Shown here in pieces: positions 41,824 through 51,452 of a stretch of DNA of 64,000 nucleotides. The stretch is from positions 64,001-128,000 of the forward strand of contig CAZDTP010000001.1 of NCBI GenBank assembly GCA_964508365.1. Direction: 5' to 3'. How positions within the stretch are numbered: position 1 is the stretch's first letter; each line of letters starts with the position of its first letter. A program made the translations under genes and the position numbers. Under the pieces are notes generated by a model, which had not been told where the DNA came from, did no database searches, and worked only from the letters and a program-made list of their open reading frames with translations. This DNA is from an uncultured archaeon (lineage in GTDB: Archaea; Asgardarchaeota; Lokiarchaeia; Sigyniarchaeales; SOKP01).

Positions 41824-42450
41824 TTACCAAATTGAGAAATCTTTTTCTTTTGAAAAATCCCTTTTTAAAGGTTTTCCAGTCATTAAAGTAAGATATCTTA
41901 TATATGCTGATTGTTCTGCTCCAGTAACATACTGTAATGCGTCTTCTAATGTCATTCCTTTAGCAAATAATCCATGACCTCTTACTACAACAAATGGGTA
42001 ATTTTTAAGCATTTTTGGTACTTCTATTGATGTATAATATGCCCCAGCAGGTATTTCAACATCAATAATTGGGATTTTTTTATACAAGGCAAAACCTTCG
42101 GCATCTATACATGTTATTTCATCCTCAATTAAAGATAATGCGACACAATATGGATTATGAGCATGTATGACTGCCATTGCATCAGTTTCTAAATAGATCG
42201 CTCGGTGAACTCCAAGTTCTGTACTAGCGATGAGTGAACTTGAGTCTTCCTCTTTTAAATTACTCACTACTAAATCTTCAAGTTGTAAATCCCCTAACAT
42301 AGCAGCCCTTCTTTTAATAATTATCTTACCTCCACTTCGAATGGAGATATTCCCTGAATGAGATGTATTATAGCCATGCCTAACTAAATGCTTCCCAACT
42401 TTTTTGAAAATATTATATATTGATTCTTCAACAATCATAAATTTCAACAT
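41824..42450 (-). CDS. Class II aldolase (FucA/RhaD-like), probable rhamnulose-1-phosphate aldolase by context
   Basis: SGNIS, STELGVH, HAH and RGHG zinc ligands; lies in the rhaA operon. Confidence 0.82.
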   Translation of the reverse strand: MLKFMIVEESIYNIFKKVGKHLVRHGYNTSHSGNISIRSGGKIIIKRRAAMLGDLQLEDLVVSNLKEEDSSSLIASTELGVHRAIYLETDAMAVIHAHNPYCVALSLIEDEITCIDAEGFALYKKIPIIDVEIPAGAYYTSIEVPKMLKNYPFVVVRGHGLFAKGMTLEDALQYVTGAEQSAYIRYLTLMTGKPLKRDFSKEKDFSIW

Positions 42451-42458
42451 TTTTTTAA

Positions 42459-44249
42459 TTAAATATGTTTAATACCAAGTTTTTTTAATAATTCTGGTTC
42501 TGGAAATCCGTTAATATCCCACCCTCGTACATAATAGTACTGTTCTAACATTTTTTCTAATGGTACAACATGTCCTTTGGAAACTCCTTCCTTAAGGGGT
42601 TCACTTATAAATCTTGGTGGTAAAATATCGTCTTTTTTACTTAATCCTTCTTTAATATTAAAAATCCTTTCTAAATTATATATTCTTTCCCCTATTTCAA
42701 GAAGTTTTACCACATCATAATCAATTCCTGTAATAGCTTTCATAAACCGAGCATAATAATCAAGTCCTAGAGCCCAACCCGCAAAAGCACATATTACTAG
42801 ACTGTCTTCTATGGCTTTTTGATTCTGTTTTAAAACCAGTAAATCAGGTTTTCCTGCCATCGTAAATCTATCAATTTTTTTTGGTGCTGCAAAAATTTCT
42901 AAAGAAGCCATGTATCCAGTTAGGTGACATCCTCCTCTATTTGATGTAGCGTAACCCAGCGCATGTCCAATAGCCCCCCTTGGATCATATGCAGGCAGTT
43001 CTAATCCTTTTACCTGCATAGCAACTTCTTCAGAGTTGTAGCTTTTAGAAAGTAATCTTGAGCCCTCACTAATTTGAGCTCCAATATCCTCTTTTAAAGC
43101 AATTTTTTTCACTAATTCTTTTAGGATATTACTATTTCCAAATTGAAGAGAAGAATCTTTTAGGAGCCCCATTTCCTGCAACTCCATGGCACAAGCAATA
43201 CTTCCACCACAAGATATTGTATCAATTCCATACTTATTGCATAAATAGTTTGCTTGAGTAACCGTGATTAAATCGTATATACCAAGATTAGGTCCAAGAG
43301 CCCAAACAGATTCATATTCAGGACCTTTACCTTTCATATCACCTGCTCTTGTTAATCTGCCACATCTTATAGGACAGGCATAACAACCCTCGTGTTCTTG
43401 GGTTAATTTTTTATTTATTTCCTCACCGCTAACTTGAGTAGCTCTCTCATCAAAACCCTTTTGAAAATTATTTATTGGAAACATACCTAGTATATTAATC
43501 ACATTAACCAAAGCTGAAGTTCCAAACAGAGGTAAAGAAGAACGGGTAATAGGAACAACTTTTATCTTATCTTGGGCGACTTTCACATATTTCTTCAATA
43601 AATCTAGATTATCAATATCAATTTTGGTATCCCCACCTTTCACTACAATTGCCTTAAGGTTTTTAGAACCCATAACAGCTCCAACACCACCTCTACCAAA
43701 TGCTCTCGCCGCATCGTTCATTATTGCAGCAATTTTTATTAAGTTCTCACCTGCAGGTCCAATCATCAATGAATTAATTCTATTACCTTCGAGCTTTTTT
43801 AATTCTTCAAAAGTCTTTTCAGTGTCACACCCCCATAATCTTGAAGCTTCTTTAATAACAATTTCTTTTCCACCCTCGATTAATAGATATCCGGGTTCTT
43901 TTAATGCTCCTTGAATTAAAATACCATCATACCCACATCTTTTCATAACGACACTGAAGGAACCACCTGAATTAGAATAGAATATTCCATTTGTTAAAGG
44001 TGATTTTGTTACTAATGAAAAACGGCCATTAGTAGGCACTATTGTTCCGCCAAAAGGACCTGTCGCAAAAATTAGTAAATTTTTTGGATCTAGAGGATTA
44101 AGATTTACTGGAAGCTTATCTGATAATAATTTTACTCCTAAACCTCTTCCTCCTATATAATCTAATAAAATTTCTTCAGGAACAGGTACTTCATTAAACT
44201 TATCGTGATTTAAATCTACTTCAAGAATTTTGTTATTTAATCCTTTCAT
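42459..44249 (-). CDS. aor: Aldehyde:ferredoxin oxidoreductase (tungstopterin family)
   Basis: GRGLG, GPAGEN, GRGGVGAVMGSKNLKAI, CYACPIRC, GPEYES and RGGCH motifs. Confidence 0.93.
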   Translation of the reverse strand: MKGLNNKILEVDLNHDKFNEVPVPEEILLDYIGGRGLGVKLLSDKLPVNLNPLDPKNLLIFATGPFGGTIVPTNGRFSLVTKSPLTNGIFYSNSGGSFSVVMKRCGYDGILIQGALKEPGYLLIEGGKEIVIKEASRLWGCDTEKTFEELKKLEGNRINSLMIGPAGENLIKIAAIMNDAARAFGRGGVGAVMGSKNLKAIVVKGGDTKIDIDNLDLLKKYVKVAQDKIKVVPITRSSLPLFGTSALVNVINILGMFPINNFQKGFDERATQVSGEEINKKLTQEHEGCYACPIRCGRLTRAGDMKGKGPEYESVWALGPNLGIYDLITVTQANYLCNKYGIDTISCGGSIACAMELQEMGLLKDSSLQFGNSNILKELVKKIALKEDIGAQISEGSRLLSKSYNSEEVAMQVKGLELPAYDPRGAIGHALGYATSNRGGCHLTGYMASLEIFAAPKKIDRFTMAGKPDLLVLKQNQKAIEDSLVICAFAGWALGLDYYARFMKAITGIDYDVVKLLEIGERIYNLERIFNIKEGLSKKDDILPPRFISEPLKEGVSKGHVVPLEKMLEQYYYVRGWDINGFPEPELLKKLGIKHI

Positions 44250-49894: not shown

Positions 49895-49952
49895 ATTAAC
49901 AAATATCTTTTTTTTTATACTTAGAATTAAATTTAAGCTTATTCGATTAAAC

Positions 49953-51452
49953 TCACCTTGTAAATTTTAAAAATTCTTCATATCCATTCATCCAACTCTC
50001 TACATCTTCAGGATAATAATCTATAATTGTAAACGATTGTATCACAATATTTCTTAGTTCATCAAGACGGTTTATTAGTCCTACTGCCTTTGCTTGCATC
50101 AAAATATTACCAATAGCGGTGGCCTCGACTGGTCCTGCTTTAATAGGAATATTTAGAGAATTAGCTGTAAATTGATTCAGTAGATGGTTAGTAGATCCTC
50201 CACCAATTATAAATAAAATTTCAACTTTTTTATCTGTAATTTTTTCCATTAATTCAATTACTTGTTTATATCTAAATGCAAGACCTTCGAAAATTACCCT
50301 TGAAATATCACCTATTGTATTTGGTGGAATTTGATTACTCTTTTCACAATAATCATGTATCGCTTTGATCATGTCTGGAGGATTATGGAAGAGAGCATCG
50401 TCAGGATTTATGAAACATTGAAACGGTTTAGCTCCCTCAGCACTAGATATAATATGCTCCCAATTATGATATAAACCTTGGTTCTCCCATTCTTTTTTAC
50501 ATTCTTGAATAATCCACAATCCAGTTACATTTTTTAAAAATCTAATAGTATTTTCAACTCCACCCTCGTTCGTAAAGTTAAACTCAAGTGATTTAGCGTT
50601 TATTATGGGTTTATTTAATTCTATCCCTATAAGGCTCCATGTCCCAGAACTAAGATATGCCCATTCTCCTCTCCTATACTTTCTCATATCAACAGGGACT
50701 GCTGTTATTGCAGAACCTGTGTCATGACAAGCAGGAGCGATAATGTTTGTATCTTTTTTTAACCCGACTTCTTGGGCAATATCCTCTTTTAGTTTTCCTA
50801 ATACTGTTCCGGAGGGGATAATCTTTTGAAATAATTTAAGTTCTAATCCTAACTTTTCAATTAACTTTTGAGACCAATCTAAAGTCTTTGGATTGAATAA
50901 TTGAGTTGTTGTAGCAATTGAGTACTCTGAACACTTTTTGCCGCATAATAAATAATTTAAATAATCGGGTATCATTAGAAATGTTTCAGATATGGTTAAT
51001 TGTGAAGAATTGTTATGGATAAGAGAATATAACTGTGTAGAACTATTGAGCTCCATAAATTGTATACCTGTCTCATTAAATATCTCCTCTTTAGACACCT
51101 TCTCAAACATAAATTTAAGCATTCCTTTAGTTCTCGAATCTCTATAATGATGGCTTGGACCAACAGGTTCGTTGTATTTATCCAACAAGATAAAATCTAC
51201 ACCCCATGTATCTATGCCTATACCATCGACGTGGTTTCCATATTTGGATACATACTTTTTGAGCCCATTTGATATTTCAGTATAGATACCGAAAATGTCC
51301 CAAAGAAAGGAGTCACCTTTTCTAATCCCGCTATTAGGAAACCGATAAATTTCATCTAAAGCAAGTTTGTTATCATTTAGTGTCCCTACAATAGCTCTTC
51401 CTGAACTGGCTCCAATATCAAACCCTAAAAGTCGCTTCAAAATGTGTTCCAC
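49953..51452 (-). CDS. rhaB: Rhamnulokinase (FGGY family)
   Basis: FDIGASSGR, GIDTWGVDF, HYRDSRT, HDTGSA, YLSSGTWSL and NVTGLWIIQE motifs. Confidence 0.92.
   Translation of the reverse strand: MEHILKRLLGFDIGASSGRAIVGTLNDNKLALDEIYRFPNSGIRKGDSFLWDIFGIYTEISNGLKKYVSKYGNHVDGIGIDTWGVDFILLDKYNEPVGPSHHYRDSRTKGMLKFMFEKVSKEEIFNETGIQFMELNSSTQLYSLIHNNSSQLTISETFLMIPDYLNYLLCGKKCSEYSIATTTQLFNPKTLDWSQKLIEKLGLELKLFQKIIPSGTVLGKLKEDIAQEVGLKKDTNIIAPACHDTGSAITAVPVDMRKYRRGEWAYLSSGTWSLIGIELNKPIINAKSLEFNFTNEGGVENTIRFLKNVTGLWIIQECKKEWENQGLYHNWEHIISSAEGAKPFQCFINPDDALFHNPPDMIKAIHDYCEKSNQIPPNTIGDISRVIFEGLAFRYKQVIELMEKITDKKVEILFIIGGGSTNHLLNQFTANSLNIPIKAGPVEATAIGNILMQAKAVGLINRLDELRNIVIQSFTIIDYYPEDVESWMNGYEEFLKFTR

Follow-up and report, generated by a model that had tools for sequence, protein, structure and literature searches.

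A predicted ferredoxin-linked variant of the phosphorylative L-rhamnose pathway in an Asgard archaeon and its conserved oxidoreductase–aldolase gene pair

A cluster of genes for L-rhamnose utilisation was found in a 64,000-nucleotide stretch of DNA (hereafter, the window; positions 64,001 to 128,000 of contig CAZDTP010000001.1, GenBank assembly GCA_964508365.1) from an uncultured Lokiarchaeal archaeon. In this cluster, the gene of L-rhamnose isomerase (RhaA) is followed by the genes of an aldehyde:ferredoxin oxidoreductase (AOR) and a small class II aldolase. In our opinion, these genes probably belong to a hybrid 6-deoxyhexose pathway, in which the AOR–aldolase pair would take lactaldehyde to lactate with ferredoxin as the electron acceptor; as a predicted variant of the known phosphorylative deoxyhexose pathway, it is well supported by comparative genomics. 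A wider proposal, to which we give an even chance, is that the AOR clade in question, present in Asgard archaea, other uncultured archaea and Chloroflexota, forms with the small class II aldolase a fixed “cleave and oxidise” module oxidising the released aldehyde with ferredoxin. In Lokiarchaeales, this module would have been joined to bacterial rhaA, rhaB, fucI and glycosidases and would yield lactate and low-potential electrons (H2 or formate), not 1,2-propanediol. The genes of the cluster and the region between its two divergent arms are as follows.

41824–42450, minus strand: class II (FucA-like) aldolase, 208 aa (PF00596)
42459–44249, minus strand: aldehyde:ferredoxin oxidoreductase, 596 aa, of the AOR sensu stricto type (PF02730 and PF01314)
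44252–45526, minus strand: L-rhamnose isomerase RhaA, first gene of the rhaA–aor–aldolase unit (NF002203)
45527–45628, no strand: divergent intergenic region between rhaA and GH78, 102 nt, AT-rich, with TATA-like TTATAA repeats (read directly)
45629–48316, plus strand: GH78 alpha-L-rhamnosidase, divergent from rhaA (five rhamnosidase Pfam domains)
48533–49894, plus strand: cation symporter of the GPH/MFS_2 (glycoside-pentoside-hexuronide) family (PF13347, 174.9 bits)
49953–51452, minus strand: FGGY kinase of the rhamnulokinase/fuculokinase group, RhaB-like (TIGR02627)

The open reading frames (ORFs) of rhaA, aor and the class II aldolase are located on one strand with gaps of 2 nt (rhaA/aor) and 8 nt (aor/aldolase), exactly as described in an earlier interpretation made from the letters of the window (hereafter, the sequence-only reading), and are presumably co-transcribed. 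The same interpretation had a divergent GH78 gene with a transporter and a rhaB-like kinase nearby, and both coordinates and family matches agree with it.

According to the proposed scheme, rhamnosides would enter the cell via the GPH symporter and be cleaved by GH78 in the cytoplasm. RhaA would convert L-rhamnose into L-rhamnulose, and the RhaB-like kinase would turn the latter into L-rhamnulose-1-phosphate. The small FucA-like aldolase, acting in RhaD’s stead, would split this ester into dihydroxyacetone phosphate (DHAP) and L-lactaldehyde, and AOR, whose gene lies 8 nt upstream of that of the aldolase, would oxidise L-lactaldehyde to L-lactate with the reduction of ferredoxin. Lactate may be further converted into pyruvate via a LutB-like system on contig C29, where a LutB/LldF-like protein and a CCG-domain protein are encoded. 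Reduced ferredoxin would plausibly be re-oxidised with the formation of H2 or formate in a syntrophic setting.

The AOR of the rhamnose locus is a full-length member of its family, with matches to both PF02730 (AFOR_N, 242.2 bits) and PF01314 (AFOR_C, domains 2 and 3, 450.2 bits). Its nearest solved relative is the AOR of Pyrococcus furiosus (1AOR, 545 bits), ahead of FOR, WOR5 and BamB. In the alignment with 1AOR, the motifs CYACPIRCGR (CxxCxxxC), a distal Cys (ICAF), GPEYESVWA and NRGGCH match identical motifs; by analogy with 1AOR, we take the four Cys residues to be [4Fe-4S] ligands and the Glu and His motifs to belong to the active site. The protein is a member of the tungsten/molybdenum-pterin family, the sequence of which does not separate W from Mo. 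Genes of AorA- or AorC-type subunits are absent next to the AOR gene, which fits a ferredoxin-linked homodimer. From these features and from its gene neighbours, the enzyme is predicted to be an L-lactaldehyde:ferredoxin oxidoreductase producing L-lactate.

The genome contains 14 AOR-family genes, and none of the other 13 shares more than 37% identity with the AOR of the rhamnose locus. In a FastTree phylogeny of 100 AORs, from which the P. furiosus enzyme was left out, every aldolase-paired AOR falls in one clade of 61 rows (support 89), and this clade excludes all 13 paralogues of the genome. Among the 1.84 billion cluster representatives with which the AOR was compared, no more than about six (583–866 bits) stood clearly above the general plateau (at most 536 bits), so the group of close orthologues is small.

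Some other members of the AOR family are worth describing. The nearest clusters outside the paired clade include C-terminal fusions to 3-hexulose-6-phosphate synthase, namely P0127 (832 aa) and P0130 (992 aa), in which the synthase part matches TIGR03128 with 204 and 283 bits, respectively; some members of these clusters are named from metagenome-assembled genomes of Aenigmarchaeota or Nanohaloarchaeota. Such a fusion of AOR with a formaldehyde-releasing lyase would follow the same “cleave and oxidise” logic in one protein. Among the paralogues of the genome itself, that on contig C79 has an iron-containing alcohol dehydrogenase (Fe-ADH) gene directly upstream (L075:4278-7460), that on C29 is about 1.6 kb from the pair of LutB-like and CCG-protein genes (L215:2692-8173), and that on C109 is convergent with a GH29 fucosidase gene (L216).

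The second component of the pair, the 208-aa protein, matches PF00596 with 105.7 bits, and its best NCBIfam match is PRK08660 (187.7 bits, just below the cut-off of 203). It is neither a canonical RhaD nor a canonical FucA: the score against the RhaD model NF002963 is 23.9 bits (cut-off 170), the length is 208 aa vs about 274 aa for RhaD, and scores against the FucA models are 40 bits for TIGR01086 (cut-off 400) and 63.2 bits for NF040649 (cut-off 250). At the same time, it keeps the key residues of class II aldolases: among 22 homologues there is no variation in the metal-binding His residues (H96, H98 and H159), in the catalytic Glu (E78) or in Asn and Ser (N34 and S76), which bind phosphate. 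The nearest solved relative is FucA of Thermus thermophilus (2fk5). On the strength of these motifs and the neighbouring genes, the protein is a predicted L-rhamnulose-1-phosphate aldolase, forming DHAP and L-lactaldehyde.

Three PF00596 proteins are encoded in the genome, none of them RhaD-like; the other two resemble FucA or epimerases, and their genes are located on contig C10 in a kinase context unrelated to this locus. RhaD (NF002963) was found in none of the 40 RhaA-bearing Asgard genomes and in one of the 399 Asgard genomes overall, and that one has no RhaA. The absence of RhaD from all RhaA-bearing Asgard genomes searched (n = 40) fits the suggestion of the sequence-only reading that a short FucA-like aldolase stands in place of RhaD.

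The C10 genes deserve separate mention. In the region C10:22001-40000 (L074), a 560-aa fusion protein with D-2-hydroxyacid dehydrogenase and FucA-like aldolase parts is encoded (ORF 9106–10788, minus strand); it adjoins an FGGY xylulokinase-like kinase (11330–12847, minus strand), and a second FucA-like aldolase is about 2 kb off (6166–6840, minus strand). The fusion would be a second aldolase–redox coupling in the same genome.

The adjacency of AOR and the small aldolase is widespread. In a phylum-wide search, 45 genomes proved to encode an aldolase orthologue that is at least 56% identical, and AOR is encoded directly upstream of the aldolase in all 30 orthologous Asgard loci listed, 28 of them with abutting genes and 2 with one ORF of about 300 aa between. 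In distant Asgard loci from families without RhaA (aldolases 36–49% and AORs 41–49% identical), the pair is adjacent in 11 of 12 cases. A metagenome scan with a profile of these distant Asgard aldolases gave 41 loci with enough upstream DNA, and 39 of them, on contigs of 33–57% GC, have AOR 3–50 nt upstream of the aldolase. In a sample of Chloroflexota, the aldolase subfamily was found in 44 of 401 genomes; among the top matches with enough flanking DNA, AOR precedes the aldolase in six of six, and no AOR was detected within 1.5 kb of the aldolase in 23 lower-scoring loci, mostly from small genomes. An apparent AOR–aldolase fusion in an 819-aa frame of genome G700 was rejected, the two matches being in different frames of a contig with 68% GC.

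Linkage of the pair to rhaA is also not confined to the window. RhaA was found in 40 of 399 Asgard genomes, nearly all within the window’s taxonomic order. The order aldolase–AOR–RhaA recurs in genomes of the same genus, in G211, in genus g7 (G161 and G162, AOR 57% identical) and in G057; in genus g11 (L048, L071), the pair is beside divergently oriented rhaB and rhaA, and in L055 it is a few genes from rhaA, with GH4, GH78, esterase and transporter genes between. With this order shared by many Lokiarchaeal genomes at AOR identities down to 57%, the objection that the aor insertion is unique to this genome is excluded. The idea of the sequence-only reading that AOR was placed inside a rhamnose operon needs to be turned around: the AOR–aldolase pair is far older and wider than the operon and existed before it.

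Co-occurrence of RhaA and the pair is given here as counts without a statistical test, since related genomes are not independent samples. In the window’s family f1 (135 genomes including this one), 29 genomes have both RhaA and the aldolase orthologue, 2 have RhaA only, 4 have the aldolase only and 100 have neither. In genus g1, the pair is present in each of the 12 RhaA-positive genomes other than this one, and both features are missing from 28 of the 41 genomes; genomes of g1 without rhaA thus also have no pair, and the latter is not a housekeeping element in that lineage. In genus g12, RhaA and the pair are on different contigs yet co-occur in 8 genomes, and neither is present in 44.

The rhamnose loci of two genomes stand apart from their own lineages. 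Genomes G211 (genus g12; contig C108; L041, L081) and G057 (family f16; contigs C56/C89; L014, L064, L086) have aldolases 92–95% and AORs 84–87% identical to those of the window, and in their own relatives the copies are only 55–67% identical or absent. Such a pattern points to recent horizontal transfer within the Asgard archaea or, in G057, whose contigs are short, to mis-binning.

The neighbours of the pair point to its substrate. Of the 34 AORs of the Lokiarchaeal clade, 24 are encoded within six ORFs of rhaA, rhaB, GH78, FucI or GH29 genes, and 2 more are beside a Lut-type gene. Downstream of the pair, genomes of genus g12 encode L-fucose isomerase, one or two GH29 alpha-L-fucosidases, GH78 and the RhaB-like kinase, and rhaA is alone on a separate contig beside glycine-cleavage genes. 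In L043 and L044, from relatives in the window’s own genus, a GH29 fucosidase gene abuts that of the aldolase in the rhaA locus, and the pair of family f5 faces, in convergent orientation, the gene of a 661-aa LUD/4Fe-4S/CCG fusion, which comprises components of Lut-type L-lactate oxidation. L-Lactaldehyde is the sole aldehyde product common to the rhamnose and fucose routes (PMC3870299). The contexts of rhamnose, fucose and lactate oxidation meet in lactaldehyde and in lactate, its oxidation product, and they argue for lactaldehyde as the probable AOR substrate, as was proposed from the window itself.

Some loci of family f4 show related arrangements. In three of them (L154:4145-7673, L155:4139-7669 and L156:1065-4601), a DHDPS-family gene (KDG-aldolase or NanA-like) is directly upstream of the pair in the same direction, and RhaA is encoded elsewhere in these genomes; AORs of this clade can thus have a different type of aldehyde-releasing aldolase as a neighbour as well. 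In two (L061 and L073) of the rhaA loci of the same family (L058-L061, L072, L073), rhaA is followed by a gene of the 3-hydroxyisobutyrate dehydrogenase family (PF03446, PF14833), a possible NAD-linked aldehyde reductase, and the AOR–aldolase pair is on a contig other than that of rhaA.

Several observations weigh against the assignment of lactaldehyde to the pair. First of all, the pair occurs in many genomes without RhaA or FucI (families f31 and f6, other Asgard classes and the six Chloroflexota), where its neighbours are of a housekeeping kind. The check for FucI in pair-bearing genomes without RhaA showed that 8 of 10 also have no FucI, and no RhaA, RhaB, FucI, GH78, GH29 or Lut homologue was found within about 9 kb of the six Chloroflexota loci. 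Lactaldehyde thus cannot be the sole or ancestral substrate of the pair, and the neighbours in distant lineages (HisRS, tRNA-intron endonuclease, M42 peptidase, a POR subunit and HycI) do not hint at what the ancestral one was. These facts favour the explanation that the pair is a general module, comprising a broad ketose-1-phosphate aldolase (acting, e.g., on 5-deoxyribulose-1-phosphate, methylthioribulose-1-phosphate or ribulose-1-phosphate) and a generalist AOR that scavenges short aldehydes such as acetaldehyde and glycolaldehyde; lactaldehyde would then be a minor substrate, and the position in the rhamnose locus a matter of recruitment or convenience. The weak scores of the aldolase against many class II models, including those of ribulose-1-phosphate aldolase and MtnB, are in line with this explanation, and the AOR of P. 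furiosus, the nearest solved AOR, is considered to accept a broad range of aldehydes derived from amino acids. However, a general module agrees poorly with the 28 genomes of g1 that have neither rhaA nor the pair, with the 24 and 2 of the 34 Lokiarchaeal-clade AORs near deoxy-sugar or Lut-type genes, and with the lack of a canonical RhaD to finish the pathway. We consider this explanation unlikely, if the strongest competitor of the lactaldehyde pathway.

Secondly, a canonical RhaD (277.9 bits, cut-off 170) is encoded directly after the pair in L138 and L139, where the small aldolase may do something else. The order of AOR, small aldolase and 274-aa RhaD in a row was seen at L138:893-4200 and L139:3258-6560 in two genomes of 33–34% GC, with no RhaA in them at E ≤ 1e-20; the AORs nest among the Lokiarchaeal ones, and the record labels “uncultured bacterium” and “Bacteroides sp.” look doubtful. 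Besides, a second FucA-like gene follows the pair in L150 and L191, and the class II fold hosts several other chemistries, as is seen from the list of NCBIfam matches. It could be suggested on these grounds that the small protein is not a rhamnulose-1-phosphate aldolase, being instead an epimerase, a dehydratase, a decarboxylase or an AOR-associated partner, and that the pathway is incomplete or uses another aldolase. This seems very improbable to us, the least probable of the explanations considered, in view of the invariant His triad, catalytic Glu and phosphate-binding Asn and Ser. Moreover, the locus has no other candidate, no RhaA-positive Asgard genome has RhaD, and the constant presence of AOR next to the small protein is most simply explained if the latter produces an aldehyde. 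A further difficulty for the role proposed here is that the aldolase of genus g12 would need to accept both fuculose-1-phosphate and rhamnulose-1-phosphate, which differ at C4.

Thirdly, other enzymes of lactaldehyde conversion might be available in the cell. Contig C1, which carries the locus, has neither aldehyde dehydrogenase (ALDH, PF00171) nor Fe-ADH (PF00465) genes, and other contigs have two of the former and three of the latter. The best NCBIfam match of the ALDH on C93 (5352–6866) is the methanogen lactaldehyde dehydrogenase (442.6 bits, cut-off 650), and the three Fe-ADHs score 184–214 bits against models of lactaldehyde reductase FucO (cut-offs 523–537). Hence, the claim that no FucO or AldA gene is present stands for the locus and falls short for the genome, where ALDH and Fe-ADH relatives exist on other contigs. 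These relatives leave room for the explanation that lactaldehyde is handled elsewhere, being oxidised by the NAD(P)-dependent ALDH of C93 or reduced to 1,2-propanediol by an Fe-ADH, and that the role of AOR is unrelated, e.g., aldehyde detoxification or acid reduction; in addition, one Fe-ADH adjoins the AOR paralogue on C79. On the other hand, the scores are well under the curated cut-offs, all these genes lie apart from those for rhamnose, and the conserved 8-nt coupling of AOR and aldolase across phyla would be left without explanation. We find this explanation improbable, well behind that of a general module. Finally, in RNA-seq data from one aquatic run, five contigs of 151 nt fall on the 5′ end of GH78 or on the transporter and none on rhaA–aor–aldolase, a result that has no bearing on co-transcription. 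Having taken all these points together, we still prefer the pathway in which AOR oxidises the lactaldehyde released by its partner.

RhaA exceeds the cut-off of an equivalog model (NF002203, 631 bits vs 572), its nearest solved structures are bacterial (3p14, 497 bits, and 1d8w, 471 bits), and in control genomes its family was matched in bacteria only. The kinase gave 483.2 bits with the rhamnulokinase model TIGR02627, below the cut-off of 527.95; FucK of Streptococcus pneumoniae (4C23, 332.7 bits) is first among its solved relatives, followed by RhaB of Escherichia coli (2CGJ, 287 bits). It belongs to the rhamnulo/fuculokinase group and may act on rhamnulose. Its position nearest to FucK and then to RhaB fits a shared kinase–aldolase–AOR trunk with RhaA and FucI as the entry points, and the RhaB-like kinase gene adjoins the AOR–aldolase pair in several relatives.

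The N-terminus of GH78, MIKPPFDLKCEY, has no hydrophobic leader as judged by eye; the enzyme is probably cytoplasmic and would free L-rhamnose from imported rhamnosides. The GPH symporter (TIGR00792, 129 bits, below the cut-off) likely imports these rhamnosides, and a GPH transporter is also present in the rhamnose loci of relatives.

The window derives from a genome of 4.07 Mb in 149 contigs with a completeness estimate of 100%, the DNA of which is contained in salt-marsh metagenomes. Archaeal markers of the window are the genes of a proteasome subunit and geranylgeranyl-reductase-like proteins; the Asgard archaea are given in PMC11316595 as the validly named phylum Promethearchaeota. The rhamnose genes are located within a larger glycan-utilisation region (35951–41751 and 51487–58825 of the window), which includes genes of GH20 hexosaminidase, a CehA-like metallohydrolase, YdjC deacetylase, GH4, a Gfo/Idh/MocA protein, GH2 beta-galactosidase and sulfatase. 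Glycan loci of relatives add carboxylesterase, GH29, GH106 and a DeoR regulator. Given the salt-marsh source, sulfated or acetylated rhamnose-containing glycans of algae or plants are a plausible, if speculative, substrate of this region.

The intergenic region 45527–45628 is presumed to be the putative site of both promoters, those of rhaA and GH78. Scans for bacterial-type promoters and terminators, which are ill-suited to archaea, gave no more than shuffled sequence, and Rfam and tRNA scans of the window gave no match. Two identical 151-nt contigs from the RNA-seq data span 45610–45926 at the 5′ end of GH78.

Few AOR-family paralogues have a known physiological substrate, and a fixed operon partner making a defined aldehyde gives one clade a testable role. 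If the proposed pathway is correct, the textbook pathways of rhamnose and fucose would acquire a ferredoxin-linked end, in which lactaldehyde is oxidised without NAD and electrons leave as H2 or formate; this fits the syntrophic physiology of cultured Asgard archaea, as reported in PMC11316595. It would also be a phosphorylative deoxy-sugar route of the bacterial type in archaea, where the route characterised in Haloferax volcanii is, as outlined in PMC10838023 with reference to Reinhardt et al. 2019, a non-phosphorylative diketo-hydrolase one. The mosaic of a bacterial isomerase and kinase with an archaeal-type aldolase–AOR module would exemplify, for the lineage closest to eukaryotes, a pathway assembled through gene transfer. 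Our literature search gave no paper joining lactaldehyde with AOR or tungsten or Asgard archaea with rhamnose isomerase, and no report of AOR activity on lactaldehyde was found in it.

Compared with known systems, the AOR of the window resembles that of P. furiosus (1AOR) and other solved AORs (9g7j, 9mqx, 8c0z) in its two-domain architecture, full-length alignment, iron–sulfur Cys and Glu/His motifs. Unlike the P. furiosus enzyme, which is not known to have a dedicated operon partner, AORs of this clade are constantly accompanied by an aldolase and occur in contexts of sugar catabolism.

With the RhaA–RhaB–RhaD and FucI–FucK–FucA routes of the E. coli type (PMC3870299), the predicted pathway shares the isomerase–kinase–aldolase logic leading to DHAP and L-lactaldehyde, as well as GH78 and a sugar transporter alongside. 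It differs in the host, an Asgard archaeon, in the 208-aa FucA-like aldolase of another subfamily replacing RhaD, and in a ferredoxin-linked AOR where AldA or FucO would stand. In the E. coli-type routes, the lactaldehyde steps are carried out by AldA or FucO/RhaO/RhaZ (PMC3870299), and the comparative study of bacterial rhamnose catabolism names AldA, RhaO/FucO, RhaZ and RhaW as lactaldehyde enzymes and never mentions ferredoxin (PMC3870299).

The closest parallel is RhaEW (YuxG) of Bacillus subtilis and Chloroflexus aurantiacus (PMC3870299), where RhaD is likewise displaced by a distant class II aldolase coupled to an L-lactaldehyde-oxidising enzyme. Its RhaE part is a validated precedent for a non-orthologous class II aldolase displacing RhaD, and in RhaEW, a fusion of this aldolase with lactaldehyde dehydrogenase, the aldolase reaction depends on the pull exerted by the dehydrogenase activity (PMC3870299). 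Unlike RhaEW, which is one fused protein with an NAD-dependent short-chain dehydrogenase, the archaeal system consists of two genes, and its oxidising component is a pterin- and iron–sulfur-containing AOR predicted to reduce ferredoxin.

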